A stretch of DNA of 64,000 nucleotides from Candidatus Omnitrophota bacterium (lineage in GTDB: Bacteria; Omnitrophota; Gorgyraeia; Gygaellales; Profunditerraquicolaceae), in contig CAINQO010000035.1 in assembly GCA_903852325.1 (NCBI GenBank), positions 34,117 to 98,116 on the forward strand. Reading direction: 5' to 3'. Position numbers and translations under genes: made by a program. Positions 10,463-37,198 of the stretch are shown piece after piece (positions within the stretch are counted from its first letter, which is position 1; every line of letters begins with the position of its first letter). The notes under the pieces were generated by a model, which saw only the letters and a program-made list of their open reading frames with translations, did no database searches and was not told the DNA's origin.

Positions 10463-11119
10463 ATGAAGAAATTAAAAGTAAGGCCTAAGGCGGTTATCTT
10501 TGACCTGGATGGAGTGATCGTTGATTCGATGCCGTATCACTTCATCGCCTGGTATGAAGCGCTTCGCCCCTGGGGAGTGCGCATCAGTTGTTTTGAGGTT
10601 TACGCGCAGGAGGGGGAACGCTGGCAGGAAACCCTAAAAGGCCTGCTTAAGCGTAACCGGATTAAGCCGGAGCGCAAGGTTTTAGAGGCTATTTTTGCCG
10701 CCCGGCAAAAGATCTTTAAGCGTTATTTTAAACGCTTTATCTTCCGGGGCGCCTACGAGCTGCTCCGGGACCTGAAAAAACAGGGTTTTTTATTGGGGCT
10801 GGTCACCGGCAGCCCGATGGAAGAGGTAAGGAAGATCCTGCCCGCCGGGGTGCTTAAACTTTTTGCCGCCACGGTCGCCGGAAATCAGGTCAAGAAAGGC
10901 AAGCCGCATCCGGAACCATATCTTAAAGCCGCCGCCGGCTTAGGCCTGGCGCCGCGGGACTGCCTGGTGATTGAAAATGCCCCTTTCGGCATTACCTCTG
11001 CCAGGCAGGCAGGAATGCCTTGCATTGCTGTTTCTACCAGCCTTCCCAAAGAATACCTGGCCGGAGCCGATTTTACGATCGAAAACCTGGGCCAGATCCA
11101 AGGATTGATCCCGCTTTAA
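10463..11119 (+). CDS. HAD-IA family hydrolase (beta-phosphoglucomutase-like)
   Basis: Motif I VIFDLDGVIVDS, motif II LVTGS, C-terminal motif IV IENAPFGITSARQAGM. 218 aa. Confidence 0.85.
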   Translation: MKKLKVRPKAVIFDLDGVIVDSMPYHFIAWYEALRPWGVRISCFEVYAQEGERWQETLKGLLKRNRIKPERKVLEAIFAARQKIFKRYFKRFIFRGAYELLRDLKKQGFLLGLVTGSPMEEVRKILPAGVLKLFAATVAGNQVKKGKPHPEPYLKAAAGLGLAPRDCLVIENAPFGITSARQAGMPCIAVSTSLPKEYLAGADFTIENLGQIQGLIPL

Positions 11120-11573: not shown

Positions 11574-12635
11574 ATGTCCTTAGCCAGGGAGTATCTTTAT
11601 AATCTGGTTACCGGTAAGACCAAGGGTCCCGGAGCCGCATTTTTAAGAGGGATTTTATTTATTCTTTCCCTGATTTACGGTTTTATTGTCATTCTCCTTG
11701 CCGGTTTCTATAAAATAAGGCGCCGGCGCCTTCCGGCCAAGGTGGTCAGTGTCGGCAATATCACCCTGGGCGGGACAGGAAAAACTACTTTAGTCCAATA
11801 TTTATCGGTTAAATTGAGCGCCGCAGGCAATAAAGTGGCTGTCTTGACCCGGGGGTATAAACGTAACGCGCAGCTTGAGGGGACCAGGGGGATGGGGGAT
11901 GAGCCGTTAATGCTCGCGGAAAAACTTCCGCAAATTCCGGTGATCGTGAACAAGGACCGGCTAAAAGCCGCCAGGCAGGCGGTCAGGGATTATGCTTGCG
12001 ATACGCTGATCCTGGATGACGGGATGCAGCAGTGGAAACTGGATAAAGACCTGGAGATCGTGACCATCGACGCGGCAAATCCTTTCGGCAATTTACGCCT
12101 GCTTCCGGCGGGGTTTTTGCGTGAGCCGCTCTCTGCCCTTAAGCGTGCGGATATTTTTGTCATTACCCAAACTTCCTGCGTCCGGGATCCAGGCGCTTTA
12201 GCGGATAAGCTTACGCGGATCAACCCCCGGGCGCTGATCGTCGAATCCAACCACGCGCCAAAAGGGTTAAGTCCCCTGGAGGCCCCGGATAAAGAATTAG
12301 GGTTGCCGGCGCTTAAAGGTAAGACCGCGGCGGTATTTTCCGGGATCGGTAACCCGGAGGGTTTTGAAAAATGCCTGCGCGGGCTGGGCATTAAATATAT
12401 GAAAATTTACCGGTTCCCGGACCATCATGCTTATACCCAAAATGATATCCTGGAAATCCTCCAGGCAGCCCGGAAGGATAAGCTGGAGATGGTGATCACG
12501 ACGCAAAAAGACGCGGTGAAACTCCGCAAAACAGGGATCAAGGATTCCGGGATACTGGTCCTGGAGATAAAACTAGAGATCACTAAAAATGAAGCAGAAT
12601 TTGATCGTCGATTACTGCGCTTACATTCTATTTAG
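11574..12635 (+). CDS. lpxK: Tetraacyldisaccharide 4'-kinase
   Basis: N-terminal TM helix then P-loop VVSVGNITLGGTGKTT. 353 aa. Confidence 0.9.
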   Translation: MSLAREYLYNLVTGKTKGPGAAFLRGILFILSLIYGFIVILLAGFYKIRRRRLPAKVVSVGNITLGGTGKTTLVQYLSVKLSAAGNKVAVLTRGYKRNAQLEGTRGMGDEPLMLAEKLPQIPVIVNKDRLKAARQAVRDYACDTLILDDGMQQWKLDKDLEIVTIDAANPFGNLRLLPAGFLREPLSALKRADIFVITQTSCVRDPGALADKLTRINPRALIVESNHAPKGLSPLEAPDKELGLPALKGKTAAVFSGIGNPEGFEKCLRGLGIKYMKIYRFPDHHAYTQNDILEILQAARKDKLEMVITTQKDAVKLRKTGIKDSGILVLEIKLEITKNEAEFDRRLLRLHSI

Positions 12636-14660: not shown

Positions 14661-16754
14661 ATGAAGATTTTACAAATTTTGCCGGAACTTAATGTCGGAG
14701 GGGTAGAGACCGGGACGGTGGACCTTTCCCGTCATCTGGTGCGCCTGGGGCATAAATCGGTGGTGGTTTCCGCCGGCGGAGCGCTGGTCAAAGAACTGGA
14801 GGAGGCGGGGGCTAAACACTATCAACTGCCGGTAAATAAAAAATCCATCATCTCCATGATCAAGCTGGTTCCGGAGTTAGCCGAAATTATCAAACGGGAA
14901 GGGATCGAGATCGTACATGCCCGCTCAAGGGCGCCGGCCTGGATCGCTTATTTTGCCTGCCGAAGGACCCAGGCGGTATTCGTTACCACTTGCCACGGTT
15001 ATTACCAGAAACATCTTTTTAGCGCGGTAATGGGCTGGGGCAAAAAAGTGATCGTTTTAAGCAACGTGATCGCCCGGCACATGATCGAGGATTTTGCCGT
15101 TCCCCATGAGCGGATCAAGCTGGTGCCGCGCAGCGTGGATCTGGAGAAATTTAAATACCGGGACCCTAAAAACAAAAGGAAAGAAGATTTTAATGTCGGT
15201 ATCATCGGCCGGATCACCCCGCTAAAAGGGCATTTGCATTTTATCAAAGCCATGGCACGCATTTCCCGCTCCGTCCCGCGCCTGAAGATCTGGATCGTCG
15301 GCGATGCTCCGGCTTCCAAGGAAGCTTATAAAGAAGAACTGCAAATTTTAGTGCGCCGCCTGGGTTTATGGCATTGCACGGAATTTCTGGGCACGCAGCG
15401 GGATATTCCGGGAATATTGGAGAACCTGGATCTGGTGGTTTTAGCCACGACTACTCAGGAGGCCTTCGGCAGGGTGGTTGTAGAGGCGCAGGCCTGCGGG
15501 GTACCGGTGGTGGCGACCAGGGTCGGAGGGGTGATCGATATTATCGAGGACGGCAAGAACGGGCTCCTGGTCCCTCCGGCGGATTCCAAAAGCATGTCGG
15601 AGGCGGTGATGCGTATTTTTAAGGACGCGGAATTCGCCCGCATCCTGGCGGAAAATGCCTACGCTAAGGTCAAAGAAAAATATAATGTGGAATTGATGGT
15701 CAAAAATACTTTAGAGGTTTACCGGGAGGCGCTGAATAATTTTAAGATCCTGGTGATCAAGCTCAGTTCTTTAGGGGACGTGATCCTTTCTACGGCGGCC
15801 TTAAGGGCGATCCGGGAAAAATTTCCCCAAAGTAAATACAAGATAAGTTTTCTGGTCGGGGAAGAATCCAAGGACCTGCTTTTGCGCTGCCCGTATATCG
15901 ACGAACTTCTGGTTTGCGACTTAAAAAATAAGGACCGCGGCCCCTTCGGTTTGCTGAGGATGGGTCAGCTTTTACGGAAGAAAAATTTCGACTCGGTGAT
16001 CGATCTGCAAAATAGCCGTTCCAGCCACCTGCTGGCTTATCTGAGCGGTTGCGTCCACCGCTACGGATATGACAATAAAAAGTTTTCCTTTTTGCTCAAC
16101 TACCGGATCCAGGATCAAAAAACCCCGCTGGACCCGGTAACCCACCAGTTCAGGATCCTTAAGCTGCTGGGGATCGACCTGTTGAATAATGCCCTTGAGC
16201 TTTGGCCTTCCGCGGAAGACCGGGAGAAGGTGGAGGAACTTTTTAATTCCCAATGGTTGAGCCAGGTGCAGAAAGTGGTGGGGATCAATATCAGCGCTTC
16301 CTCCAGATGGGAGACAAAACTCTGGCCGCTGGAATACGTGATCACCCTGTGTGAAGAACTGGAAGCCAGGGATATCCGGGTGGTCATTACCGGTAAGCAA
16401 GAGGATCAGCCGCGCGCCAACATGCTCGTCGATTCGCTTAAGAACACCAAGGTGATCAATGCCTGCGGCAAGACCAATATCAACGAATTGGCGGTGTTGA
16501 TCAAAAAATGCAATGTGTTCATCTCCGCCGATTCTTCTCCTTTGCATATCGCTTCCGCGGTGGGCACTCCTTTTGTCGCTTTGTTCGGCCCGACGGATCC
16601 TTTGCGGCACCTTCCCCCCGGGGCTAATTACGCGGTGATCGATAAGAAATTGAATTGCAGCCCTTGTTATAAAAATAGATGCCGCAGTAAGCGCTGCATG
16701 ATCGAGATCGATCCGGCGCAGGTTTTTGAAGCGGTAATGAAGTTATTGAAATAA
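14661..16754 (+). CDS. Bifunctional LPS-core glycosyltransferase: GT4 (RfaG-like) N-domain fused to GT9 (heptosyltransferase-like) C-domain
   Basis: N-terminal half has the GT4 E-x7-E motif region EAFGRVVVEAQACGVPVVATRVGGVIDIIEDGKNGLLVPP. C-terminal half has the GT9 pattern ILVIKLSSLGDVILSTAALRAIREKFP...ISADSSPLHIASAVGTPFVALFGPTDP. 697 aa. Confidence 0.8.
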   Translation: MKILQILPELNVGGVETGTVDLSRHLVRLGHKSVVVSAGGALVKELEEAGAKHYQLPVNKKSIISMIKLVPELAEIIKREGIEIVHARSRAPAWIAYFACRRTQAVFVTTCHGYYQKHLFSAVMGWGKKVIVLSNVIARHMIEDFAVPHERIKLVPRSVDLEKFKYRDPKNKRKEDFNVGIIGRITPLKGHLHFIKAMARISRSVPRLKIWIVGDAPASKEAYKEELQILVRRLGLWHCTEFLGTQRDIPGILENLDLVVLATTTQEAFGRVVVEAQACGVPVVATRVGGVIDIIEDGKNGLLVPPADSKSMSEAVMRIFKDAEFARILAENAYAKVKEKYNVELMVKNTLEVYREALNNFKILVIKLSSLGDVILSTAALRAIREKFPQSKYKISFLVGEESKDLLLRCPYIDELLVCDLKNKDRGPFGLLRMGQLLRKKNFDSVIDLQNSRSSHLLAYLSGCVHRYGYDNKKFSFLLNYRIQDQKTPLDPVTHQFRILKLLGIDLLNNALELWPSAEDREKVEELFNSQWLSQVQKVVGINISASSRWETKLWPLEYVITLCEELEARDIRVVITGKQEDQPRANMLVDSLKNTKVINACGKTNINELAVLIKKCNVFISADSSPLHIASAVGTPFVALFGPTDPLRHLPPGANYAVIDKKLNCSPCYKNRCRSKRCMIEIDPAQVFEAVMKLLK

Positions 16755-16819
16755 GCAATATACCTGGCGCTTAGTGGTATTGCGCCAGTACGCGCCACGT
16801 GGCGCGAGGGGCGGGATGA

Positions 16820-16894
16820 CCCCGCACCATCTTCTAATTCACGCTTTAAGTCCTAAGGTTTAATAACAATTAACTATAAGGATGGTGCGGGGTG
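16820..16894 (+). promoter_or_regulatory. Leader element copy A (anti-SD arm CCCCGCACCATCTTCT paired with SD/start arm AAGGATGGTGCGGGGTG) upstream of the GT4 gene
   Basis: The 5' arm at 16820..16835 is complementary to 16878..16894, which holds the RBS and the GTG start at 16892. An AT insertion is matched in both arms. The CGCGCCACGTGGCGCG palindrome lies upstream. Confidence 0.6.
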
Positions 16895-17992
16895 CGGATT
16901 TTATTTTTAGCCAATCATCTTAATGTCGGGGGGATCTCCAGTTACTTGCTGACCTTGGGTAGCGGATTGAAAGAAAAAGGGCATGAGGTTTATTTGGCCT
17001 CCGGGGGCGGTGAATTAGAGGAAAAATTCCGGCAGGCCGGAATAATCCTGATCAATGTCCCCTTGAAAACAAAAAGCGAGATCAGTCCGAAGATCCTGAT
17101 CAGTTACTGGAAATTAAAAAAGGCCGCTGCCGGTTTGCGGATCGAGCTTATTCATTCGCACAGCCGGACCACCCAGGTTTTGGGATGCTGGCTGGGCCGC
17201 TCCCTGGGCAGGCCGCATATTTTTACCTGCCACGGTTTCTTTAAACCGAAACTGCCGCGCAAGGTTTTCGGCTGCTGGGGCCAAAGGGTAATTGCTATCA
17301 GCTCCCAGGTCAAAGAGCACTTGACCGCGGATTTTAAATTCAGCGAAAATAAGATTAGCGTGATCCATAACGGCATCGACACGCAAAAATTCGGGGATTT
17401 TTCGGGAAGGGACCGCTTGCGCAGCAGTTTAGGGGTCGCCCCGGATGGTTTTTTGATCGGGATCATCGCCCGCCTCTCCGATGTGAAGGGGCATCTTTAC
17501 CTTATCCGGGCGATGCCGGAGATTTTAAAAAAATTCCCCGGGACCAAATTAGCGATAATCGGTCAGGGTAAGACCGAAGGCTCTTTGGTCAAAGAAACAG
17601 GGAATTTAGGGTTAGAGGGCAATATTTTATTTGTCCCGGAAGCAAAAGATACCCGGGAATGGCTTTGCGCCATGGATGTTTTTGCCATGCCTTCGCTGCA
17701 GGAAGGCTTGGGGCTGGCTTTGATGGAAGCGATGGCTCAGGGTTTAGCCGTGGCCGGATCGGCGGTAGGGGGGATCAAAACCCTGGTCCAGGATAAAATT
17801 ACCGGACTGCTGGTCCCGGCGCGGGATGCGGGGGCGCTGGCGCAGGCGATCATCTCTTTGCTTGGGGATCCGGATTTACGCCGTAATTTAGGGGATCAGG
17901 CGCGCGAATTTATCGCCGCTAATTTTTCTAAAAAAGAAATGGTGGAAAAGACCGAAGGCCTTTACCGGCAGGTTTTAAATCCCAATGAGTGA
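16892..17992 (+). CDS. GT4-family glycosyltransferase (GTB fold)
   Basis: MRILFLANHLNVGGISSYLL... with E-x7-E region LQEGLGLALMEAMAQGLAVAGSAVGGIKTLVQDKITGLLVP. GTG start. 366 aa. Confidence 0.85.
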   Translation: MRILFLANHLNVGGISSYLLTLGSGLKEKGHEVYLASGGGELEEKFRQAGIILINVPLKTKSEISPKILISYWKLKKAAAGLRIELIHSHSRTTQVLGCWLGRSLGRPHIFTCHGFFKPKLPRKVFGCWGQRVIAISSQVKEHLTADFKFSENKISVIHNGIDTQKFGDFSGRDRLRSSLGVAPDGFLIGIIARLSDVKGHLYLIRAMPEILKKFPGTKLAIIGQGKTEGSLVKETGNLGLEGNILFVPEAKDTREWLCAMDVFAMPSLQEGLGLALMEAMAQGLAVAGSAVGGIKTLVQDKITGLLVPARDAGALAQAIISLLGDPDLRRNLGDQAREFIAANFSKKEMVEKTEGLYRQVLNPNE

Positions 17993-19037
17993 AAAAACAG
18001 AAAATCCGCGGATTTTGATCTTTAATGTTAACTGGCTGGGGGATGTTTTATTCTCATCCGCCGCCATCAGGAATATCCGCAGGAATTTCCCGAAAAGTTA
18101 CATTGCCTGCGTGATCCCTAGCCGCTGTTACCCGGTGCTCAAGGATAACCCGTATCTGGACGAGGTGATCATTTTCGACGAGCATGACCGGCACAAAGGG
18201 ATACTGGAGAAAATGAATTTTGTCAGTCTCCTGAAGAAAAAGCAGTTCGATAAAGTGTTTTTACTGCACCGCTCCTTCAGCCGGGCGCTCATCTGCCGTC
18301 TGGCCGGGATAAAGCAGCTTATCGGCCACTATACCAAAAAACGGGCCTTCCTTTTGACGCACAAAATTTTTCCTCCGAAAAAAGATTCCCTGCATCGCAT
18401 CGATTATTATCTGGATATTATTGAAAAGTCCGGTTTAAGGGTGGAGGACCGGTACCTGGATTTTTTTGTCAGCCATGAAGACCAGGAGCATGTCGACAGC
18501 TTTTTTAAGAAAAATTCCCTTTCCGATAAGGATCTGGTCATTGCCCTTAATCCCGGAGGCAATTGGGTGCCGAAACGCTGGCCGCCGGAATACTGGGCGG
18601 CCCTGGCGGATAAATTGATCAGCCAAACCGGCGCCAAGGTAATTATTACCGGCAGCATTTCGGATTTGTTGCTGGCCGGCCAGATAAAAGAGAGGATGCG
18701 CGAAACGCCTTTGACCGGCTGCGGGGTTTTTAATTTAAAACAGTTAGGGGCGCTGGCCAAGAAAGTGGACCTGTTCATTACCGCCGATACCGGGCCGCTG
18801 CATATTGCCAATGCGGTAGGGGCAAAAAAAATAATCGCTATTTTCGGCCCTACCGCGCAAAAGGTCACCGGGCCGTTCCCTTCGACCAATGTGGTCATCC
18901 TGCAAAAAGATACCGGCTGCCGGATCCCCTGTTATAAGGTGAACTGCCCGGACAGCCACTGCATGCGGGCGGTTACGCCGGATGATGTCCTGGCTCAGGT
19001 CAAGCAAATATTTAATCCCCGGCGGGAAACCCCGTAG
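17985..19037 (+). CDS. GT9-family glycosyltransferase (LPS heptosyltransferase-like)
   Basis: ILIFNVNWLGDVLFSSAAIRNIRRNFP, NPGGNWVPKRWPPEYW, ITADTGPLHIANAVGAKKIIAIFGPT. 350 aa. Confidence 0.85.
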   Translation: MSEKTENPRILIFNVNWLGDVLFSSAAIRNIRRNFPKSYIACVIPSRCYPVLKDNPYLDEVIIFDEHDRHKGILEKMNFVSLLKKKQFDKVFLLHRSFSRALICRLAGIKQLIGHYTKKRAFLLTHKIFPPKKDSLHRIDYYLDIIEKSGLRVEDRYLDFFVSHEDQEHVDSFFKKNSLSDKDLVIALNPGGNWVPKRWPPEYWAALADKLISQTGAKVIITGSISDLLLAGQIKERMRETPLTGCGVFNLKQLGALAKKVDLFITADTGPLHIANAVGAKKIIAIFGPTAQKVTGPFPSTNVVILQKDTGCRIPCYKVNCPDSHCMRAVTPDDVLAQVKQIFNPRRETP

Positions 19038-19111: not shown

Positions 19112-21127
19112 ATGAAAATCCTTTTTGTCACCTTAAGCAATATCGGCGATTGCATCCTCACCTTGCCGGTGCTGGATGGGCTGCGGGAAAAATACCCGCA
19201 GGCCAAAATCACCTGCTTAGTCCCTCCGGGGCCCAAAGAAATCTTTACCGCTAACCCTGCCGTGGCCCGGGTGTTTATTTTTGATAAACACGCCAAATTG
19301 CAAGAGAAGGTCAAATTATTTTTTTCCTTAAGCCGGGAGGAGTTTGACCTGGTGATCGATCTGCGGAATAGTTTTTTCGGCGCTTTCTTACCGGCGAAAA
19401 AATGGAACTTGTTCAGCGGCCCCTTGCGCCGGATACCCGGAAAGATCAAGCACATGAAAGACCGGCATTTATACCGGGCATTAGGCCGGGATTATCCTCT
19501 CTTAAGGAAATACCGTTCTTTTAATATTAAGCCGCAGGATGATGATTATATCGAAAAAATATTGGGCCCGGCCGCAGGGAAGAAACTGATCGTGGTTGCC
19601 CCCGGGGCAAAAAGCCGGTCCAAGTGCTGGGCTAAGGAAAATTTCCGCCTGCTCTGCGGCCGGCTGGCGGAAGAGGGGAATCAAATCGTGCTGACCGGGG
19701 ATAAAGCGGATCAGGAGGCCTGTGCTTATATCCGCCGGGAGGGAATAATCGATCTGTGCGGCCGGACCGACCTGGCGCAATTAGGGGCCCTGCTTAAACG
19801 GGCGCGGCTTTTGATCAGCAATGACAGCGCGGCAATGCACCTGGCCAGTTACCTGAACGTGCCGGTGGCGGCGATTTTCGGGCCGACGGATGAAAAAAAA
19901 TACGGCCCCTGGTCGGATAAAAATATCGTGATCAAAAAAGAGGTTTTTTGCCGCCCCTGCGCCAAAGCCCAATGCCGCTCCCTGAGCCTTGATTGCCTGG
20001 AGGCGATCAAGCCGGAGGATGTCCTGCGGCAGATCGAGCCGTTGCTTAAAGAACAAAAGGATGCCGCACTTTCTTTGCAAAATGAAATCCGAAACGGATT
20101 CCGCCGGATCCTGGTGGTGCGCACCGACCGGTTAGGGGACGTGATTTTATCCACCCCGGCGGTAAAAGCCTTAAGGCAGGCGTTTCCGCAAAGCTATATC
20201 GCGATGCTGGTTTCTTCCTACGCTAAAGACGCGGTGGAAGGTAACCCGGATTTAGATGCGGTGCTCGTTTTCGATAAAGAAGCCAAAGATAAGGGCGTGT
20301 TCGGCAGTTTAAAGTTGGCGGGTGAGCTTAAACAAAAGCAGTTTGATCTGGCGGTGATCCTGCATCCCACGGTGCGGGTGCATTTATTGATGTTTATCGC
20401 CGGGATTCCCCGGCGCGTAGGTTATGACCGCAAATTTGATTTTTTACTCACCGACAGGATCCCGCACGTAAAACAAGAAGGGCAAAAACACGAATCCGAA
20501 TATACCCTGGATTTAATCCGCTACCTGGGGGTCGCTCCGCAAAGCCCCGCATTGTTTGTGCCGGTAAAACAGGAGTCGGAAAAGTGGGTGGAAGCTTTAT
20601 TCCGGCAAGAAGGGATCGGCCCCAAAGATAAATTGCTGGTGATCCATCCGGCGGCAAGCTGTATTTCTAAAATTTGGCCGGCAGAAAGGTTTGCCCTGGT
20701 CGCCGACAGGCTGGCGCAACAATACGGTTTTAAAGTCTGCATTATTGCCGGGCCGAAAGATATAAGTAAAGCGGAACTGGTGAGCAGGAGTATGCAGGTT
20801 CCTGCTCTGAACCTGGCGGCAAAAACAACGGTCAGTCAGCTGGCCAGTTTAATCAAAAGGGCGCAGCTATTTATTTCCACGGATTCCGGACCGGTGCATA
20901 TTGCTTCCGCTTTTTCTATCCCCCAGGTTACGATTTTCGGGCGCAGCCAGGCAGGGCTTAGCCCAGTGCGTTGGGGCCCGCAAGGGGAGAGGATCAGGAT
21001 TTTACATAAAGAAGTCGGCTGTACGGCTTGCCTGGCGCATGACTGCCTTCGGGAATTTGCCTGTATTAAATCCATTACGGTTGAGGATGTACTTGAAGCA
21101 GCGGAGGAACTGATTAGTGGATTCTAG
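19112..21127 (+). CDS. Tandem double GT9 (two heptosyltransferase-like domains in one polypeptide)
   Basis: Two full repeats. Each begins I(L)xVxLxxxGDxILxxP (MKILFVTLSNIGDCILTLPVLDGL and ILVVRTDRLGDVILSTPAVKAL) and ends with the ...DSxxxHLA/IASA...IFGPT core. 671 aa. Confidence 0.8.
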   Translation: MKILFVTLSNIGDCILTLPVLDGLREKYPQAKITCLVPPGPKEIFTANPAVARVFIFDKHAKLQEKVKLFFSLSREEFDLVIDLRNSFFGAFLPAKKWNLFSGPLRRIPGKIKHMKDRHLYRALGRDYPLLRKYRSFNIKPQDDDYIEKILGPAAGKKLIVVAPGAKSRSKCWAKENFRLLCGRLAEEGNQIVLTGDKADQEACAYIRREGIIDLCGRTDLAQLGALLKRARLLISNDSAAMHLASYLNVPVAAIFGPTDEKKYGPWSDKNIVIKKEVFCRPCAKAQCRSLSLDCLEAIKPEDVLRQIEPLLKEQKDAALSLQNEIRNGFRRILVVRTDRLGDVILSTPAVKALRQAFPQSYIAMLVSSYAKDAVEGNPDLDAVLVFDKEAKDKGVFGSLKLAGELKQKQFDLAVILHPTVRVHLLMFIAGIPRRVGYDRKFDFLLTDRIPHVKQEGQKHESEYTLDLIRYLGVAPQSPALFVPVKQESEKWVEALFRQEGIGPKDKLLVIHPAASCISKIWPAERFALVADRLAQQYGFKVCIIAGPKDISKAELVSRSMQVPALNLAAKTTVSQLASLIKRAQLFISTDSGPVHIASAFSIPQVTIFGRSQAGLSPVRWGPQGERIRILHKEVGCTACLAHDCLREFACIKSITVEDVLEAAEELISGF

Positions 21128-21250
21128 GTTGAGGAGTGGGGATTGGGTCGAGTAGTGGGATAGGTAGTGCGGGTGAGTTGTGGGGTAGACCAACTACTAA
21201 TCCACACAACCTAACGCACTACTTTACCTAACCCACACTACTCACCCTAT
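21128..21250. repeat. G-rich/C-rich imperfect long palindrome (GTAGTGGG / CCCACTAC / ACTACTAAT words); related copy at 58419
   Basis: GGATTGGGTCGAGTAGTGGGATAGGTAGTGCGGGTGAGTTGTGGGGTAG is followed by the near-complementary CTAATCCACACAACCTAACGCACTACTTTACCTAACCCACACTACTCACCC. Immediately 3' of the GT9-GT9 gene. Confidence 0.5.
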
Positions 21251-21281
21251 GCTCGATTTTGGCTATCCAGTAATGCTTGAT

Positions 21282-21310
21282 TTGTCAGCAAATTGTGTTA
21301 AAATCATTAT
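21282..21310 (+). promoter_or_regulatory. Candidate sigma70 promoter giving a (near-)leaderless transcript for the DHS-like gene
   Basis: TTGTCA, 17 nt, CATTAT, then 5 nt to the ATG at 21316. Confidence 0.35.
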
Positions 21311-21315
21311 CTATT

Positions 21316-22245
21316 ATGATCAACTTAAAGAAGGTTAAAAGATATTCGCTTAAAGCCCGTTTAAGCAAGGTAAATAAGGGGGATTTTGCCCTTAAACCGG
21401 CTAAAGGCAGGAGTTTTTCCGTTTTTTTTGACTCCTTACCTAATATTTTAAAAGCCAAAGATTTACGCTCGGTTTCTGCCGATATTATCGCGGCGCGCCG
21501 GAAAAATAAAGGGGTGATTTTAATGGCCGGGGCCCACGTGATCAAGTGCGGGCTTAATCCGGTTTTGATCGAGTTGTTGGAAAAAAAAGTGATTACCTGT
21601 ATCTGCCTTAACGGGGCCGGATTGATCCACGATTTTGAGATCGCCTACCAGGGGAAGACTTCGGAAGATGTGGCCGCCAACCTCAAAGACGGGAAATTCG
21701 GGATGGGGATCGAGACCGCGGATTTTATCAACGCCGCGGTCAAAGAAGGGACTGAGGCGGGCTTTGGATTAGGTTATGCCTTAGCCAATAAAATGGCCGG
21801 GGCAGCTTTACCCAATAAAGATCTAAGCCTGATTTATAATGCCTATAAGCGTAAAATCCCGGTTTGTGTTTTTGCGGCGATCGGTACGGATATAATCCAT
21901 CAGCACCCTTCTTTCGACGCTGCGGCAACCGCCGTGGGCTCATTGCGGGATTTCCATATCCTGGTGGAGAGGATCCGCTCCTTGAATCAGGGGGGAGTGG
22001 TTTTAAATTTCGGCTCCGCGGTGCTTTTGCCTGAAGTATTTTTAAAGGCTTTGAACCTTGCCCGCAACCTGGGCAGCAAAGTGAAAGATTTTACTTCCGC
22101 TAATTTCGATATGATTTACCAGTACCGCGCGGCACAGAATGTAGTGAGCCGTCCCACCGCTTCCGGGGGTAAAGGCTATTATATTATCGGTCACCATGAG
22201 ATCATGCTGCCGCTTTTAGCCCAAAGTATATTGGAAAAAATCTGA
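21316..22245 (+). CDS. Deoxyhypusine synthase (DHS)-like NAD-binding family protein, function unknown, embedded in the LPS/heptose locus
   Basis: Three blocks follow the DHS pattern. AGAHVIKCGLNPVLIELLEKKVITCICLNGAGLIHDFE matches SN.ISSG.RE.I..L.....VDV.VTTAGGVEED. IPVCVFAAIGTDIIHQH matches IPVF.PA.TDGS.GD. LNQGGVVLNFGS matches GGGVVKHH. Start moved from the track's 21277 to the internal ATG at 21316 because 21277 overlaps the putative -35 box. Confidence 0.5.
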   Translation: MINLKKVKRYSLKARLSKVNKGDFALKPAKGRSFSVFFDSLPNILKAKDLRSVSADIIAARRKNKGVILMAGAHVIKCGLNPVLIELLEKKVITCICLNGAGLIHDFEIAYQGKTSEDVAANLKDGKFGMGIETADFINAAVKEGTEAGFGLGYALANKMAGAALPNKDLSLIYNAYKRKIPVCVFAAIGTDIIHQHPSFDAAATAVGSLRDFHILVERIRSLNQGGVVLNFGSAVLLPEVFLKALNLARNLGSKVKDFTSANFDMIYQYRAAQNVVSRPTASGGKGYYIIGHHEIMLPLLAQSILEKI

Positions 22246-22246
22246 C

Positions 22247-22317
22247 CCCGCACCTTCTTCGTATTCGATCTGAAGGTCAGGGGTAAAAAATAGTTAATAA
22301 TAGGAAGGTGCGGGGTG
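22247..22317 (+). promoter_or_regulatory. Leader element copy B (CCCCGCACCTTCTTC ... AGGAAGGTGCGGGGTG) upstream of hldE
   Basis: The 5' arm starts 2 nt after the upstream stop. An internal GAAGGTCAGGGG can alternatively pair with the anti-SD. The 3' arm supplies the SD and GTG start (22315). Confidence 0.6.
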
Positions 22318-23328
22318 AAGAACCTAAAAGAGATTGTCCGCAAATTCAAGCGGGCTAATATTTTGGTCGTCGGAGACCTGATCCTGGATGAATACATCTG
22401 GGGCGCGGTGGAGAGGATCTCTCCGGAGGCTCCCGTGCCGGTGCTTTGGGCCAACAAACGTACTTTTGTTCCCGGGGGCACCGCTAACGTGGCCAATAAC
22501 ATCGGCTCCTTCGGGGCAAAAGTGACTCTTTTGGGGGTCACCGGTTCCGACGCGAACTCCAAGATTTTGCTGGGCGAATTAAAGAAGAGAAAGATCGATA
22601 CGCGGGGTATTTTTGTCGAAAAAAATCGGCACACTACGGTCAAGACGCGGATCCTGGCCGGGCATCAGCAGGTAGTCCGGGTGGATTGGGAACATACCCA
22701 TGATCTGTCTCAAGAGTTAAACGATAAGATTTTAAAATTCATCCAGAAGAATATCGATGATTTCGACGCGATCATTATCGAGGATTACGGCAAAGGGGTA
22801 ATCAATGTCCCGCTCTTGAAAACGCTGATCGCTTTGGCGAAAAACCATAAAAAAATCATTACCGTTGATCCGAAAGAGGAGAACTTTCAGTTTTATCGGT
22901 CGGTAGATTCGATCACTCCTAACCGCAAGGAGCTGGAAAACGCGATAAGGAATTTGAAGATCCAGGACACGACCAACGGTTTCAAGATCAATACGGATAA
23001 ACTCTTTACGGATAAGGATGTGGACCGGGCTGCCCGGGAGATCCTGGAATACCTGCGTCTTGATTCTATTCTGGTTACCCTGGGGGAGCACGGGATGAAA
23101 CTTTTGGAAAAGAACGGCCGCCTTACCCATATTCCCACGGTAGCCCAGGAAGTTTTCGATGTTTCCGGCGCGGGGGATACCGTAATCAGCACCTTTACCC
23201 TGGCTTTAAGCGTGGGCGCTTCCAAATTAGAGGCGGCGCACATCGCCAATTTTGCCGCAGGGATAGTGGTAGGTAAATTGGGCACGGCAGTGACCAACAC
23301 TAAAGAACTATTAGAAAGGATTAAATAA
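22315..23328 (+). CDS. hldE: D-glycero-beta-D-manno-heptose 7-phosphate kinase (HldE domain I / RfaE1, PfkB family); no fused adenylyltransferase domain
   Basis: ILVVGDLILDEYIWGAVERISPEAPVPVL and the C-terminal DVSGAGDTV ribokinase motif. 337 aa, GTG start. Confidence 0.85.
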   Translation: MKNLKEIVRKFKRANILVVGDLILDEYIWGAVERISPEAPVPVLWANKRTFVPGGTANVANNIGSFGAKVTLLGVTGSDANSKILLGELKKRKIDTRGIFVEKNRHTTVKTRILAGHQQVVRVDWEHTHDLSQELNDKILKFIQKNIDDFDAIIIEDYGKGVINVPLLKTLIALAKNHKKIITVDPKEENFQFYRSVDSITPNRKELENAIRNLKIQDTTNGFKINTDKLFTDKDVDRAAREILEYLRLDSILVTLGEHGMKLLEKNGRLTHIPTVAQEVFDVSGAGDTVISTFTLALSVGASKLEAAHIANFAAGIVVGKLGTAVTNTKELLERIK

Positions 23329-23329: not shown

Positions 23330-24082
23330 ATGGACGTAATCGGGGTGATCCCGGCCAGGTATTCATCTACCAGGTTCCAGGGTAAGGTCCTGGCGGACAT
23401 TCTGGGCAAGCCGATGCTCCAGCATGTCTGGGAAAGGGCCAAACAATGCCGTATGCTGGACGATCTGGTCATTGCCTGCGATAACGAGTTGATCCTGAAA
23501 ACCGCCTTAGGGTTCGGAGCCAAGGCGCAAATGACCTCTAAAGAGCATTCCTGCGGCACCGACCGGATCAGTGAAGTAGTTAACCCGCTGGATGTGAAGG
23601 TGATCATCAATATTCAGGCGGATGAACCGCTGATCCACCCGATGATGATCGACAGTGTCGCCCGGGCTTTGCTCGAGGATAAAATGCTGAACATGGCGAC
23701 GTTAATGAAAAAGATCGACGATGTCCTGGAACTTTTGGACCCTAATGTGGTTAAGGTGGTCGTGGATAAAAATAATTTCGCTTTATATTTTTCCCGCGCC
23801 CCGATCCCTTACCTGGCGCCGAATGCCGAAATCGACCAGGTCACTTACTACAAGCACATCGGGCTTTACGGTTACACCAAGGATTTTTTATTTACTTACA
23901 AAAACCTTCCGGTTTCTAACCTGGAAAAAACGGAAAAATTAGAGCAGCTGCGCGTGTTAGCGGAGGGGTTCCGGATCAAAGTGCTCCAGACGCAGTTCGA
24001 CACCGTGGGAGTGGATACGCCTAAAGATTTGGAGAGGGTTTTGTGGCAATTAAAAAAGGGGAAGAACGATGCATCCGGTTAA
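23330..24082 (+). CDS. kdsB: 3-deoxy-manno-octulosonate cytidylyltransferase (CMP-Kdo synthetase)
   Basis: VIGVIPARYSSTRFQGKVLADILGKPMLQHVWERA. 250 aa. Confidence 0.9.
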   Translation: MDVIGVIPARYSSTRFQGKVLADILGKPMLQHVWERAKQCRMLDDLVIACDNELILKTALGFGAKAQMTSKEHSCGTDRISEVVNPLDVKVIINIQADEPLIHPMMIDSVARALLEDKMLNMATLMKKIDDVLELLDPNVVKVVVDKNNFALYFSRAPIPYLAPNAEIDQVTYYKHIGLYGYTKDFLFTYKNLPVSNLEKTEKLEQLRVLAEGFRIKVLQTQFDTVGVDTPKDLERVLWQLKKGKNDASG

Positions 24083-24881
24083 TGTGGGAAAAATAAAATT
24101 CGGAGACCGCTACCCGCTGGTTTTGATCGCCGGCCCTTGCGCGATCGAATCGGAAAGTTCCTGCCTTGAGGCGGCGGCAAAGCTCAAGGAGATTACCGCC
24201 GGCTTAGGCGTTCCGTTCATCTTCAAGTCCAGCTTTGATAAGGCCAACCGGCTTTCCGTGGGGTCTTACCGCGGTCCGGGGCTAAAAAAAGGGTTGGCTA
24301 TTTTAAAGAAAGTAAAGTCGAAACTGAAACTCCCCATTTTAAGCGATGTGCATTGCGTGCATGATGTCGAGCCGGCCGCGCAGGTCCTGGATATTATCCA
24401 GATCCCGGCGTTTTTGAGCCGCCAAACCGATATTGTTTTAGCCGCCGGGCGCACCGGTAAAGTGGTGAATATTAAAAAAGGCCAGTTCCTGGCCCCCTGG
24501 GATATTTTACCGATTATCAAAAAAGTGGAAAGCACGGGGAATAAACAGATTTTAATCACTGAACGCGGAGCAAGCTTCGGTTACAATAATTTAGTCACGG
24601 ATTTCCGGAGTTTAGCGATCATGCGGGATTTTGGCTATCCGGTAATTTATGACGCTACCCACAGCGTGCAGCTTCCCGGAGGCCAGGGCGGCTGTTCGGG
24701 AGGGCAGACCCAGTTTGTCGCCGGGTTGTCCCGGGCGGCGGTGGCTTTTGGCTGCGACGGTTTATTTTTGGAGGTGCACGCTAACCCCAAAGCCGCTCCC
24801 TGCGACGGGCCGAACATGATCAACTACCGGGAATTGGAAGAGCTTTTAAAGCAAATCAAAAGGATCAGCCAGGTAATATAA
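24069..24881 (+). CDS. kdsA: 2-dehydro-3-deoxyphosphooctonate aldolase (Kdo-8-P synthase)
   Basis: PLVLIAGPCAIES...KSSFDKANR...DVH DAHP-synthase-like fold motifs. 270 aa. Confidence 0.9.
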   Translation: MHPVNVGKIKFGDRYPLVLIAGPCAIESESSCLEAAAKLKEITAGLGVPFIFKSSFDKANRLSVGSYRGPGLKKGLAILKKVKSKLKLPILSDVHCVHDVEPAAQVLDIIQIPAFLSRQTDIVLAAGRTGKVVNIKKGQFLAPWDILPIIKKVESTGNKQILITERGASFGYNNLVTDFRSLAIMRDFGYPVIYDATHSVQLPGGQGGCSGGQTQFVAGLSRAAVAFGCDGLFLEVHANPKAAPCDGPNMINYRELEELLKQIKRISQVI

Positions 24882-24899
24882 ACTTTAATAAGGTGCGGG

Positions 24900-25868
24900 A
24901 TGAGTATTGATTTGATCAAACGGGCAAAAGAAGTTTTGGAAATCGAAGCGCAGGCAGTGCGCCGGTTAAAGGGGTGCCTGGATAAAGGTTTTATTAAAGC
25001 GGTTGAGCTGATCCTGAAGAGCAAGGGCAGGGTAGTGGTTAGCGGAATGGGCAAGACCGGAATTATCGCCCAAAAATTTTCCGCGACTCTTGCTTCGACC
25101 GGGACCCCCAGTTTATTCCTGCATACCGCCGAAGCTATTCACGGGGATTTAGGCAAGGTTACCGCGGATGATGTGGTGATCATCCTTTCTAACAGCGGTT
25201 CGACCGAGGAGATGAAACAGCTTTTGCCGATCCTCAAAAAGATCGGCGCTCCGATCATTTCTTTGACCGGCAACACCAAATCCATTCTGGCCAAATACAG
25301 CGATGTGGTCCTGGATGTCTCCGTGAAAAAAGAGGCCTGTCCGTTAGGTTTGGCCCCCACGGCTTCCACTACCGCGGCTTTGGCGATGGCCGATGCCCTG
25401 GCGGTCTGCCTGCTGGAACGTAAGGGGTTTAAAGAAAAGGATTTTGCATTTTTCCATCCTGGGGGCACTTTAGGCAAGCGCCTGCTTTTGAGCGTCGCGG
25501 ATATCATGCGCCAGGGGCAGTCTAATGCCATTGTCCGCGAGGATAAATTGGTGGCGGAAGTTTTGTTGGCGATTACCCGGGCCCGGGCCGGCAGCGCTAT
25601 TGTGGTGGATAAGCAGGGAAAACTGAAGGGGATATTCACCGACGGAGACCTGCGCCGGCATTTAGCCACCGACAAGTATTTACCGCAGCGGCCGATCAAA
25701 GAAGTAATGACCAAAAACCCCACGGTAGTGAGCAAAGATATGCTGGCGGCAGAGGCGATGCGGATATTACAGGCCAGGAAGATCGATGAAGTCCCGGTGG
25801 TGGATAAATTCAGGCGCCCGGTGGGCTTATTGGATGTCCAGGACCTGCTTAAAGCCGGATTAATTTAA
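24900..25868 (+). CDS. kdsD: Arabinose-5-phosphate isomerase (SIS plus tandem CBS)
   Basis: SIS motif VVVSGMGKTGIIAQKFSATLASTGTPS plus C-terminal CBS pair. 322 aa. SD AAGGTGCGGG precedes the ATG. Confidence 0.9.
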   Translation: MSIDLIKRAKEVLEIEAQAVRRLKGCLDKGFIKAVELILKSKGRVVVSGMGKTGIIAQKFSATLASTGTPSLFLHTAEAIHGDLGKVTADDVVIILSNSGSTEEMKQLLPILKKIGAPIISLTGNTKSILAKYSDVVLDVSVKKEACPLGLAPTASTTAALAMADALAVCLLERKGFKEKDFAFFHPGGTLGKRLLLSVADIMRQGQSNAIVREDKLVAEVLLAITRARAGSAIVVDKQGKLKGIFTDGDLRRHLATDKYLPQRPIKEVMTKNPTVVSKDMLAAEAMRILQARKIDEVPVVDKFRRPVGLLDVQDLLKAGLI

Positions 25869-25872
25869 TCGA

Positions 25873-25963
25873 GGCGCAGCAATCAATGACTGCGCCGAAG
25901 ATTATCCGCCAACGATCCAGTGGCGGATAAATTTAGAAAGAAACTCCGGGCTTAGCCCGGAGT
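25873..25963 (+). promoter_or_regulatory. Three consecutive perfect stem-loops between kdsD and kdsC
   Basis: GGCGCAG-N10-CTGCGCC (25873..25896), TTATCCGCC-N11-GGCGGATAA (25902..25930) and ACTCCGGGC-TTA-GCCCGGAGT (25943..25963). None has a U-tract. Confidence 0.4.
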
Positions 25964-25974
25964 GATCCATTAAA

Positions 25975-26517
25975 ATGCCCTGGGAATCCCTCAATCAAGA
26001 CCTAAAAACACGTTTCAGCAAGATCCGCCTCCTGCTTTTGGATGTGGACGGGGTTTTAACCGACGGCCGGATCGTTTATGATTCCCGGCGCCGCGACTCT
26101 AAATTTTTCGACGTGCATGACGGCCTGGGGGTTTATGTCTTGCATAAATTCGGGATCAATACGATCCTGATTACCGCCAAGAATTCCAAAGCGATCGCCC
26201 CGCGCTCTAAGGATATGCGGGTGGTGGAGGTTTTTGCGGGGATCACCCCTAAAAGCATGGTTTTAGATAGGATCCTCAAGAAATACGGGGTGGAAAAAGA
26301 GGCGGTTTGTTTTATGGGGGATGACCTGGTGGATCTGTCCCTGATGCGCAAGATCGGCCTTCCGGTGGCTCCCGCCAATGCCCGGGAAGAAGTCAAGGAG
26401 GCAGCAGTGTATGTCACCAGCTGTTCCGGCGGCAGGGGAGCGGTCCGGGAAGTGGCGGAGTTGATCCTGAAATCCCAGGATAAATGGAAAGATGTTTTAA
26501 AACTTTATGAAGCATAA
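25975..26517 (+). CDS. kdsC: Kdo-8-phosphate phosphatase (HAD-IIIA)
   Basis: LLLDVDGVLTDGRIVYDS, FMGDDLVDL. 180 aa. Confidence 0.85.
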   Translation: MPWESLNQDLKTRFSKIRLLLLDVDGVLTDGRIVYDSRRRDSKFFDVHDGLGVYVLHKFGINTILITAKNSKAIAPRSKDMRVVEVFAGITPKSMVLDRILKKYGVEKEAVCFMGDDLVDLSLMRKIGLPVAPANAREEVKEAAVYVTSCSGGRGAVREVAELILKSQDKWKDVLKLYEA

Positions 26518-27403
26518 AGATTTAGTTTTAACTTTTGTATTTTTATTCTTTGCCTGCGGTTCCTTGTTTGCGGCGGTAGAAGTCAAGGATCCCGGTGAAT
26601 CTGCCGGACAGGTGGGGGATTTTTCCCTTGCTGGTTTCGGGGACAAAGGAAAGAAAGCCTGGGACCTGGCGGGTAAATCCGCCAATATTTTCACCGATGT
26701 GGTTAAATTGCAGAAAGTCGTCGGTAATGATTACGCCCTCACCGATACGATCAACCTTACCGCCGATAACGGGGACTTTAACAAGAAAAGCGGCCTGGTG
26801 CATTTGCAGGACAATGTCGTCATCACTACCGCCAGCGGCGCCAAGATGACTACCGATACCCTGGATTGGGACAGGAAGCAGCAGATCGTCAAGACCTTGG
26901 ACAGGGTCAATCTGGCCAAGCAGGATATGAACCTTTCCGGCCAAGGCGCCCAGGGAAAGACGGAATTAAAGCAAATCAAGCTGGAAAAAGATGTGCGCCT
27001 GGATATTCAGACCCTGGATAAGCAGGTGAACAAAAAAGAAAAGATCGTCATTACCTGCGACGGGCCGCTGGACGTCGATTATGAAAAAAATATTGCCATA
27101 TTCAATAATAATGTTAAAGTAGAAAAGCCGGATATGACCATTTACAGCGATAAAATGGAAGTTTTTTTTACCCCTAAAGAGCAGCCGGCGCAGCCTAAAA
27201 CGCCTGCTCCCGGGATGGCGGCGCTCTCCAGTTCCGTGGATCGGATCGTCGCTTCGGGGAATGTGCGCATCGTGCGGGGGGAGAATACTTCTTTCAGCCA
27301 GCAGGCAATTTATACCGCCGCGGATAAAAAAATCACTTTGACCGGAAAGCCGCAAATTATCATTTACCAGACGGAGAACGCGAATGCAGCTTTTGGAAAC
27401 TAA
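26507..27403 (+). CDS. LptC/LptA-family (OstA-like beta-jellyroll) LPS transport protein, N-terminally anchored
   Basis: Signal/anchor [17 protein letters not shown], then two OstA-like repeat regions ([24 protein letters not shown] and [37 protein letters not shown]). 298 aa, so possibly a combined LptC plus LptA function. Confidence 0.6.
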
Positions 27404-28106
27404 GGGCCTGGCTAAATCCTATGACGGTCGCTGGGTGGTTAAGGGCGTGGATATCACGGTCAAGCGCGGGGAGATCGTCGGGCTTTTAGGCCCCAACGGA
27501 GCCGGCAAGACTACTACTTTTTATATGATCGTCGGGATCGTCCCCCCCAACAAGGGCACGATCGTTTTTGATAACCATGAAATCACCCGGATGGCGATCC
27601 ACGAGCGGGCGCGTTTCGGGATCGGCTATCTTGCCCAGGAACCCTCGATATTCCGGAAACTGACCGTGGAAGAAAATATCAACGCGATCCTGGAGACTTT
27701 GCCTTTGAGCCGCGCGCAGAGAAAAAACCGGCTGGCGTTTTTGCTGGAGGAGTTGAATATCGCGCACCTGGCAAAGCATAAAGCCTACACTTTAAGCGGC
27801 GGAGAGAGAAGGCGCCTGGAGATCACCCGGGCGCTGGTGACCAATCCTTCTTTTATCCTGCTGGATGAACCTTTCAGCGGGATCGACCCGATCGTCGTCA
27901 ATGAAGCGCAGGAGATCATTAAGGAATTAAAGGCCAAAGGCCTGGGTATTCTTTTGACCGACCATAATGTGCGGGAGACCCTGGCGATCACCGACCGGGC
28001 GTATTTAATTTCCGAAGGGGCGATCCTTATTTCCGGATCCGCGGAGGAGCTGATTAATCACCCTCAGGCCCGCCAGGTTTATTTAGGTGAGAAGTTTAGG
28101 ATGTAA
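27384..28106 (+). CDS. lptB: LPS export ABC transporter ATP-binding protein
   Basis: Walker [12 protein letters not shown], signature [11 protein letters not shown], Walker B ILLDEP. 240 aa. Confidence 0.9.
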
Positions 28107-28248
28107 CCCCGCACCTTCTTCTGTATTCGGAAGAAAAACGGATTGATTAAAGGCGCGGGACAATAATAACCATGGTCATTTCTTTAAACATCAAGGTTCA
28201 AAGCTTAGATGCAGGGAATGATATAATTAAGAAAGAAGGTGCGGGGTG
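28107..28248 (+). promoter_or_regulatory. Leader element copy C (CCCCGCACCTTCTTC ... AAGAAGGTGCGGGGTG) upstream of tig, with a 25-codon uORF
   Basis: The 5' arm begins at the first nt after the lptB TAA. The uORF at 28173..28250 ends with TGA overlapping the tig GTG (GGTGA). Confidence 0.6.
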
Positions 28249-29133
28249 AAAACCGAAGTTAAGAAATTAGACGGAACTAAACGTGAAATTAATGTCGCCG
28301 TGACCGGCGACTTGGTCAAAAATAAATTTGAAGAAGTTTTCGCACAGGTCGCCAAAGAAGCCAAGGTCCCGGGTTTTCGCCCGGGAAAAGCGCCCCGGGA
28401 TCTTCTGGAAAAGCATTACGGTTCCAGCGTCCATGAGCAGGTGTTAAAGGAGCTGGTCCCGGATGTGTATAACCAGGCGGTCGCGGCGGAAAAACTCGAT
28501 GTCATTGAGCTGCCCCAGATCACCGATGTGCAGCTGGATCGGGCCAGCCTTTCTTTTAAAGCGGTCGTGGAGGTCAGCCCGGAAATTACGCTGAAGAATT
28601 ATAAAAACCAGGTAATTAATTATAAGCTGCCGGTTGTTTCCGCGGATGAAGTGAAACGCCAGATCGACTCGGTCAAGGAATCGCGTAAGGCCGAAAACCT
28701 GGATGATAAATTCGCCCGCTCCCTGGGTTATCCTGATTTAGGGGAATTGGAAAAAGCGGTGGAAAGACAGATCTTTCTTACCAAGGAGAATCAGGAACGC
28801 CAGCGGATTGAAAATGAATTAATCGAAAATATTACCAAAGGGGTGGAATTTAAGCTGCCGCAAGGATTGGTGGACCGGCAGGTTCAGGATATGCTGCGGC
28901 AGACCAAGATCGATTTGGCGATGAAAGGGCTGCCCCGGGAGAAGATCGACGCGCAGGATAAATTGCTTTTAGAGGGGATCGAACCGGAAGCAAAAAAGCA
29001 GGTCAAGATTTACCTGATCCTGGCGCAGATCGCGAAAAAAGAGAATATCGCCATCGACGACCATATGCCGCGCAAGGTGATGGAGTTTCTGCTGGGTGAA
29101 GCAGAGTGGAAGGCTGCACAAGAGAATAAATAG
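28246..29133 (+). CDS. tig: Trigger factor lacking the central FKBP/PPIase domain
   Basis: N-terminal ribosome-binding domain (MKTEVKKLDGTKREINVAV..., GFRPGKAP signature) joined directly to the C-terminal chaperone arm. 295 aa versus about 430 typical. GTG start. Confidence 0.8.
   Translation: MKTEVKKLDGTKREINVAVTGDLVKNKFEEVFAQVAKEAKVPGFRPGKAPRDLLEKHYGSSVHEQVLKELVPDVYNQAVAAEKLDVIELPQITDVQLDRASLSFKAVVEVSPEITLKNYKNQVINYKLPVVSADEVKRQIDSVKESRKAENLDDKFARSLGYPDLGELEKAVERQIFLTKENQERQRIENELIENITKGVEFKLPQGLVDRQVQDMLRQTKIDLAMKGLPREKIDAQDKLLLEGIEPEAKKQVKIYLILAQIAKKENIAIDDHMPRKVMEFLLGEAEWKAAQENK

Positions 29134-35852: not shown

Positions 35853-37198
<1,346 letters not shown>

Follow-up and report, generated by a model that had tools for sequence, protein, structure and literature searches.

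ADP-heptose is a building block of the lipopolysaccharide (LPS) inner core, and the ALPK1-TIFA pathway of the host recognizes it as a bacterial ligand. Within its biosynthetic pathway, the inversion at C6'' catalyzed by HldD is the only step of the transient-redox type. In Escherichia coli, the gene for HldD (RfaD, GmhD) sits next to heptosyltransferase genes (rfaD-waaF-waaC). In Helicobacter pylori, rfaD lies within a gmhA-hldE-rfaD-gmhB cluster (PMC5531669). Geobacter sulfurreducens carries gmhA (GSU2087), GSU2086, hldE (GSU2085), and gmhB (GSU2084) in that order (PMC5585712). The subject of this study is a 309-amino-acid protein that resembles GSU2086 in family and in heptose-operon setting. 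It is encoded on the forward strand at positions 21316 to 22245 of a 64,000-nucleotide stretch of Candidatus Omnitrophota DNA (contig CAINQO010000035.1; the whole stretch is referred to below as the window), where its gene, like E. coli rfaD, adjoins heptosyltransferase genes. Our analysis indicates that the GSU2086 family is very probably a member of the ADP-heptose biosynthesis module, and we tentatively propose that it could be an NAD(P)-dependent heptose 6-epimerase that is analogous but not homologous to HldD.

Two other groups of described proteins are structurally close to the family. In the reactions of deoxyhypusine synthase (DHS) and of the C-terminal domain of AgrE, the NAD+ cofactor is reduced transiently; the AgrE domain depends on NAD+ as a temporary hydride acceptor. 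The literature that we searched gives no function to the GSU2086 family, and GSU2086 itself turns up there only in a single Geobacter transposon sequencing (Tn-seq) paper. Full-text searches returned nothing tying a DHS-like protein to heptose, and the papers found on "DHS-like" proteins dealt with polyamine and histone deacetylase topics only.

The protein is a full-length member of the GSU2086 family with a predicted DHS-like fold

A preliminary description of the window, made from the sequence without database searches, had proposed the open reading frame (ORF) at 21316-22245. The ORF is real: it translates into 309 amino acids with no internal stops, and an identical database entry is on record from 14 contigs. 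A mechanical ORF list places the start at a TTG codon (21277) upstream of the ATG at 21316. We assign the ATG as the start because most of the 120 best relatives are 309 amino acids long and cover the query in full.

The protein matches NCBIfam NF052581 ("GSU2086 family protein") with 392.3 bits against a cutoff of 250, over residues 2-303 and profile positions 2-300 of 301, and is thus a full-length member of a family that NCBI catalogues without function. The family is large. At an E value of ≤1e-3, 2432 cluster representatives (50% identity) were recovered, 465 of them at ≤1e-30, and species-representative genomes held at least 599 stretches matching it. An alignment of 105 members (A1) contains a single invariant residue, E108, together with about 40 nearly invariant ones, many of which are His, Asp, Glu, Lys, or Arg. 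At least 85% conservation is seen in 53 columns; the window protein agrees at 51 of these, the exceptions being H186F and G206A.

An AlphaFold2 model built from the family alignment had a predicted local distance difference test score of 98 and a predicted template modeling (TM) score of 0.93. When the model was compared with the PDB by Foldseek, deoxyhypusine synthases ranked first (7cmc, E value of 9e-10 and TM score of 0.59 to 0.67; 1dhs, E value of 7e-8). Next came the LOR/SDH-like protein 3c2q, and after it the NAD-binding C-terminal domain of ArgZ/AgrE. Identities in these matches were 10 to 17% (12 to 16% for DHS). The DHS-type fold named in the preliminary description is therefore borne out by the model, in which it is clear. 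Membership in the DHS family proper fared less well: Pfam DS (PF01916) gave a marginal and partial match (29.9 bits against a cutoff of 27, residues 55-116 only, profile positions 20-83 of 288), and the DHS equivalog TIGR00321 scored 18 bits against a cutoff of 304. Judged by these profile scores, the protein is not a DHS. Pfam and NCBIfam scans of the protein gave no match to SDR (short-chain dehydrogenase/reductase), Epimerase-family, or heptose_epim profiles.

When the family profile was compared with PDB sequences, only residues 56-119 aligned, with ArgZ/AgrE as the best match (E value of 4e-6) ahead of DHS (E value of 0.012). By this measure, the ArgZ/AgrE C-terminal domain (6juy, 6lrg; PF21570) is the closest solved relative. 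It shares a G-x-x-V-I-x-x-G ... h-D-x-E motif with the family, several members of which match PF21570 weakly. ArgZ/AgrE and 3c2q differ from the family in that only about 65 residues can be aligned by sequence and in acting on amino acids, whereas the family occurs in a heptose-nucleotide context. A serine acetyltransferase returned by a single-sequence PDB search (E value of 0.03) was rejected as spurious.

The dinucleotide crevice appears to be mostly retained and the amine site lost

The family was compared with human DHS, the sequence of which was checked against the PDB. The roles of the human positions (NAD contact, nucleophile, spermidine site) follow the UniProt annotation. The comparison is a motif-based sequence alignment and not a structural superposition. 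An hhalign alignment of the family profile with human DHS covered 40 columns only, and a BLOSUM global alignment, in which eight motifs were colinear, was relied on instead. The corresponding positions are as follows.

Human DHS 105-109 (NAD contact): family 73-77, with H74 in 96% and K77 in 98%
Human DHS T131-T132-A133 (NAD contact): family N99-G100-A101
Human DHS E137 (NAD contact): family H105, changed
Human DHS T237-D238 (NAD contact): family T191-D192
Human DHS G283 (NAD contact): family G233 (99%)
Human DHS T308-A309 (NAD contact): family S/T261-A262
Human DHS D313 (NAD contact): family D265 (98%)
Human DHS D342 (NAD contact): family H293, changed
Human DHS K329 (nucleophile): family position 286, with Lys in 31%, Arg in 23%, and Gln in 11%; Lys in the window protein
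Human DHS H288 (spermidine site): Leu, Met, or Ile in 97% of family members

Six of the eight NAD-contact motifs are thus alike in kind in the motif alignment, E137 and D342 being replaced by His. Retention of the DHS active site, which the preliminary description had left to be checked, appears to hold for most of the NAD contacts and to fail for the equivalents of Lys329 and His288. On this alignment, the dinucleotide crevice appears to be largely retained and the amine-transfer machinery not to be conserved. With most of the NAD contacts apparently in place, the family is more likely to act on a heptose intermediate in an NAD-dependent reaction than to transfer an aminobutyl group. The conserved basic residues K77, K244, R271, and R279, together with several His residues, would suit a phosphorylated substrate. 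In summary, DHS (PF01916, TIGR00321; human, 1dhs; Pyrococcus horikoshii, 7cmc) and the family are alike in overall fold, motif order, and, by the motif alignment, most NAD-contact positions and differ in sequence, in the spermidine-site residues, and in genomic setting, the eIF5A/polyamine context being absent around the family genes.

The family is linked to ADP-heptose genes across phyla

To place the family in its genomic setting, we surveyed 161 loci totaling 2.05 Mb, namely, 80 from genomes of more than 15 lineages, 80 from metagenomes, and the window. In 87 of them, a core heptose gene was directly adjacent and on the same strand, so that the link with LPS heptose suggested for the window gene proved to be both strong and general. 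The adjacent gene was gmhA in 56 loci, hldE-I in 28, hldE-II in 13, and gmhB in 4, and GT9 genes were present in 38. Where gmhA and the family gene form a pair, their stop and start codons often overlap. Complete heptose modules recur with shuffled gene order, as in the following examples (X, GSU2086 family).

L066: GmhA-X-HldE-GmhB
L025 and L129: X-HldC::GmhB-GmhA-HldA-GT9-GT9
L097: HldE-GmhB-X-HldC::GmhA-GT9
L113: GmhB-X-HldE-GmhA
L088: X-HldE-GmhB
L047, 9947-12400, metagenome-assembled genome labelled Akkermansia muciniphila: X-HldA-GmhB, with a kinase-only HldA

The Akkermansia HldE (Amuc_0415) has been shown experimentally to make ADP-heptose in a study that names GmhA, HldE, and GmhB only as annotated in the genome (PMC9427033). 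The X-HldA-GmhB cluster of L047 lies apart from this bifunctional HldE. In G. sulfurreducens, Tn-seq values for growth on electrodes showed that insertions in GSU2086 (-3.2) share the defect of those in hldE and gmhA (-3.1 and -3.7, respectively) (PMC5585712).

The family domain is also fused to enzymes of the pathway. Among the 150 best cluster representatives (50% identity), the following fusions were found, the partners being identified by matches of 64 to 153 bits to the E. coli enzymes.

P0136, P0138, P0159, and P0194: HldE-II/HldC-like adenylyltransferase
P0168: HldE-I-like kinase
P0229: whole HldE, 836 amino acids
P0214 and P0225: GmhA, in both domain orders
P0238: GmhB-like HAD phosphatase
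P0166: triple protein of ARMT1-type phosphatase, HldC, and GSU2086 domain

The adenylyltransferase was the commonest partner (6 of 11 fusions). Taken together, the loci and the fusions show a tight and phylum-spanning linkage of the family to GmhA, HldA/HldE-I, GmhB, and HldC/HldE-II.

Some further observations were made on these proteins. The DUF89-type ARMT1 "damage-control" phosphatase of P0166 may substitute for GmhB. Fusions internal to the pathway were also seen, namely, HldC::GmhB (368 amino acids; L025, 7264-8370; L129, from 7265) and HldC::GmhA (L097, from 10966). In P0125 and P0217 (also P0187 and P0250), the GSU2086 domain is tandemly duplicated or split within a single polypeptide. 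The tandem domains possibly point to an oligomer as the working form; some of the tandem or split cases are possible assembly or gene-calling artifacts, and P0250 also carries a GH38 fragment.

Other recurrent neighbors were rejected as partners, being housekeeping genes of particular lineages; by eye, they encode SprT-like, DinB, Mfd, signal-peptide, CPBP protease, CdsA, and MiaB/RimO-type proteins. A SprT-like protein of about 220 amino acids, so called by eye from an HExxH motif and a Cys-rich C terminus, is encoded directly 3' of the family gene in 14 loci (L143, 4149-4802, and 13 more), several of which have gmhA directly upstream. It is often followed by dinB-like and mfd-like genes and appears to reflect lineage housekeeping context.

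Alone among the pathway enzymes, HldD is missing from the surveyed loci and fusions

No true HldD was found within ±10 kb of the family gene in any of the 161 loci. Six SDR genes in these loci matched E. coli HldD weakly (28 to 76 bits). Four were rejected as divergent HldD, scoring 74 to 123 bits with TIGR02197 (NCBIfam) against a cutoff of 274.6, a profile that gave 458 bits with E. coli HldD as a control; GalE, dTDP-glucose dehydratase, or LegB fit them equally well or better. The other two, from L090 and L091, were rejected as well (phmmer, 35 to 36 bits; by eye close to the SDR of L066). Among the 150 cluster representatives, there was no fusion to an SDR or to HldD. HldD is therefore the sole canonical enzyme of the pathway that is never beside or fused to the family in these surveys. 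No G. sulfurreducens 6-epimerase appears among the genes listed in the portion of the Tn-seq supplement that we consulted.

The window is an LPS locus of Candidatus Omnitrophota

All of the large ORFs of the window are on the forward strand. Those around the family gene identify it as an LPS locus and are as follows.

5700-6995 (+): waaA
11574-12635 (+): lpxK
12589-14592 (+): lipid A acyltransferase fused to an ELM1-like (PF06258) domain, an unusual fusion
14661-16754 (+): GT4-GT9 fusion glycosyltransferase (PF00534 plus PF01075), an unusual fusion
16892-17992 (+): GT4 glycosyltransferase
17985-19037 (+): GT9 heptosyltransferase, WaaF-like (TIGR02195, 149 bits against a cutoff of 134.6)
19112-21127 (+): heptosyltransferase of 671 amino acids with two GT9 domains (PF01075 in two stretches, 257 bits), an unusual architecture
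21316-22245 (+): GSU2086-family gene, 309 amino acids (NF052581)
22315-23328 (+): heptose-7-phosphate kinase (TIGR02198 rfaE_dom_I, 375.8 bits against a cutoff of 345; Pfam PfkB)
23330-28106 (+): kdsB, kdsA, kdsD, kdsC, lptC-lptA fusion, and lptB, in that order

The product of 19112-21127 scored about 255 bits with both TIGR02201 and TIGR02195. The kds genes and LptC exceeded their NCBIfam and Pfam cutoffs; the LptA-like part of the lptC-lptA fusion (26507-27403), which is also unusual, scored 37 bits, below its cutoff of 72. The window was searched with Pfam up to position 58408 and by phmmer with E. coli proteins against every ORF of at least 70 amino acids. As the preliminary description had stated, a heptose kinase is present, and these searches found no GmhA, GmhB, or HldE-II/HldC in the 64-kb window; HldD was likewise not found there. 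A HAD hydrolase (10463-11119) was rejected as GmhB, since E. coli GmhB gave no match to it at an E value of 1e-5. The gmhA, gmhB, and HldE-II genes are presumably located elsewhere in this Omnitrophota genome.

Promoter-like motifs and hairpins flank the family gene

A promoter-like TTGTCA-17-CATTAT had been assigned to the gene. The sequence is indeed present (21282-21310; 9 of 12 matches), but sites of this type are not above chance in number (3 found against 1.9 ± 1.5 expected). It overlaps a second motif, TTGATT-N16-TGnTAAAAT, that is conserved in eight related Omnitrophota loci (L002-L010), where it ends 8 to 12 nucleotides before the ATG. This second motif is a putative promoter. No Shine-Dalgarno (SD) sequence precedes the ATG of the family gene in the window or in the related Omnitrophota loci; this, with the closeness of the motif to the ATG, suggests that the GSU2086-hldA operon transcript is near-leaderless in Omnitrophota.

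The gene had also been described as flanked by a single G-rich repeat, a view that was not upheld, as the two sides carry different hairpins. The elements are as follows.

21128-21260 (+): imperfect G-rich/C-rich hairpin of 133 nucleotides, directly after the GT9 stop codon and followed by TTTT, terminator-like
21277-21304 (+): promoter-like TTGATT-N16-TGnTAAAAT with extended -10, 11 nucleotides 5' of the ATG
22245-22316 (+): hairpin between the family gene and the kinase gene, with 21-nucleotide arms that are 86% complementary (-32.3 kcal/mol)

The first hairpin has a minimum free energy (MFE) of -64.7 kcal/mol (z score of -7.3 against shuffled sequences) and is unique in the window. Relatives have a spacer of differing length and sequence at the corresponding place, with unrelated hairpin- or repeat-rich inserts of 80 to 511 nucleotides.

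In the second hairpin, the arm just after the stop codon pairs with the start region of the kinase gene (SD-like GGAAGG and GTG codon); in L002, L004, L005, and L010, by contrast, the family and kinase genes share an ATGA overlap. The window holds four similar copies of this long-range intergenic hairpin (16819-16894, 22245-22316, 28106-28250, and 35857-35934), 3' of which lie the genes for GT4, hldA, tig, and purA, respectively. The 5' arm, ACCCCGCACC(T/A)TCTTC, comes just after the upstream stop codon (about 50 nucleotides after it in the last copy), and the 3' arm, (G)AAGGTGCGGGGTG, holds an SD-like sequence and the GTG start of the next gene. Loops vary from 30 to 110 nucleotides, and the MFE of the surrounding stretch ranges from -32 to -56 kcal/mol. 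The element could sequester the ribosome-binding site or could be a repeat resembling repetitive extragenic palindromic sequences. A similar hairpin element was noted between the homologous genes of L009.

A conserved His is replaced in an Omnitrophota subclade

At residues 184 to 186 (21865-21873), the window protein reads Cys184-Val-Phe186, whereas the family has Thr-Val-His, His186 being 93% conserved. Its close Omnitrophota relatives (L002-L009) have CVF or CVY, as in the window protein; L011 has CVH, and more distant Omnitrophota have TVH. In the model, residues 184 and 186 belong to the same strand (183-186), two positions from each other, and as a guess, Cys184 may have taken over the role of His186. 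The change may represent migration of a functional residue or an altered activity.

Proposed function and alternatives

The fold, the dinucleotide motifs, the lost amine site, the conserved basic residues, and the pattern of genomic linkage are most simply read as those of an HldD analogue. It was the finding that HldD alone is never beside or fused to the family that led us to this proposal, which we hold as plausible and still short of probable. The enzyme would be cytoplasmic and would be the fifth of an ADP-heptose module, the product of which the GT9 heptosyltransferases use for the LPS inner core. It would have kept the dinucleotide pocket of the DHS and ArgZ/AgrE clade and lost the amine-handling residues. 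A tightly bound NAD(P)+ would act as transient hydride acceptor on a heptose intermediate, which would be oxidized and then reduced again. The substrate would be ADP-heptose or possibly, given the frequent coupling to gmhA, the earlier heptose-7-phosphate. In the window, the gene would have a promoter of its own, 3' of the heptosyltransferase genes, from which the heptose kinase, kds, and lpt genes would be transcribed along with it. HldD and the family would then be alike in the proposed reaction and in gene-cluster position, and they differ in fold (SDR Rossmann against predicted DHS-like) and share no sequence similarity.

Several points weigh against this proposal. Bacteria can use ADP-D,D-heptose directly, so that a fifth step is not strictly required. 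The commonest partner is gmhA, often with overlapping stop and start codons, a pattern as compatible with an early step as with a late one, and HldD may be located elsewhere in these genomes, beyond ±10 kb. Cofactor binding is predicted from the motif alignment, in which two acidic NAD contacts of DHS are altered (E137 to H105 and D342 to H293). The Tn-seq phenotype of GSU2086 may be a polar effect on hldE. Finally, with His186 replaced by Phe or Tyr in the window protein and its close relatives, activity in this subclade might differ.

Of the alternatives, the one that survives best is an unrecognized step near GmhA, acting on D-glycero-D-manno-heptose-7-phosphate or sedoheptulose-7-phosphate; it could be a different epimerase or oxidoreductase or a conditioning of the anomer or substrate, as distinct from the job of HldD. 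We consider it the main rival of the HldD analogue and somewhat less likely. That gmhA is by far the commonest neighbor, often with overlapping codons, and is fused to the family in both orders speaks for it, as does the set of conserved residues H74, H105, D106, E108, H186, H294, and E295, which could form a metal or acid-base site. However, the pathway has no known need of a step of this kind, four enzymes being sufficient for ADP-D,D-heptose. The fusions most often involve the adenylyltransferase, and the HldC::GmhA and HldC::GmhB proteins show that pathway enzymes fuse regardless of step order, so that adjacency is not decisive.

A noncatalytic role, in which the family binds a dinucleotide or ADP-heptose and serves as a scaffold or feedback regulator of GmhA and HldE, is decidedly improbable. 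The DHS/Sir2-type fold is known to bind ADP-containing ligands, and the tight linkage to and fusion with pathway enzymes would suit such a role. Over more than 15 lineages, however, 53 columns are strongly conserved; one of them is an invariant Glu, and many others are His, Asp, Lys, or Arg. Active sites typically show such a pattern, and about 50% identity between phyla suits an enzyme.

The preliminary description had placed the protein in the stead of GmhA, GmhB, or the HldE-II/HldC adenylyltransferase, none of which was found in the window. This has very little to recommend it. The family shares operons with all three (L066, L025, L088, L097, L113, and GSU2087-2084) and is fused to each (P0214, P0238, P0138, and P0229); Geobacter, for example, has gmhA, a bifunctional hldE, and gmhB beside GSU2086. 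Given this co-occurrence and these fusions, the family is not a replacement for GmhA, GmhB, the kinase, or the adenylyltransferase.

Least credible of all is the transfer of a spermidine-derived aminobutyl group to a sugar nucleotide or to LPS, as had also been suggested: DHS is the best structural match, PF01916 matches marginally, and the gene lies in an LPS locus, but the TIGR00321 score is far below cutoff, the equivalents of K329 and H288 are not conserved, and the recurrent neighbor clusters identified in the 161 loci include no polyamine gene, the conserved partners being heptose-nucleotide enzymes.

Significance

We consider this a well-supported functional prediction for a widespread unknown family. 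The ADP-heptose pathway has been treated as complete with five enzymes, and a sixth linked gene family leads to one of two outcomes: either an unrelated enzyme makes L,D-heptose in many phyla, or the pathway has an unrecognized step. Under the first, for which our confidence is limited, the family would take the place of HldD and supply L-glycero-D-manno-heptose for LPS across many nonproteobacterial phyla, including Omnitrophota, Nitrospirota, Thermodesulfobacteriota (Geobacter), Verrucomicrobiota (Akkermansia), Bacteroidota, Planctomycetota, and others. If so, the DHS and ArgZ/AgrE clade would gain its first member acting on a sugar hydroxyl and not on an amine; such sugar-directed chemistry would be new for the DHS fold, and the enzyme would be a possible non-SDR target. 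Either outcome would change the annotation of the pathway in thousands of genomes, including those of A. muciniphila and Geobacter.

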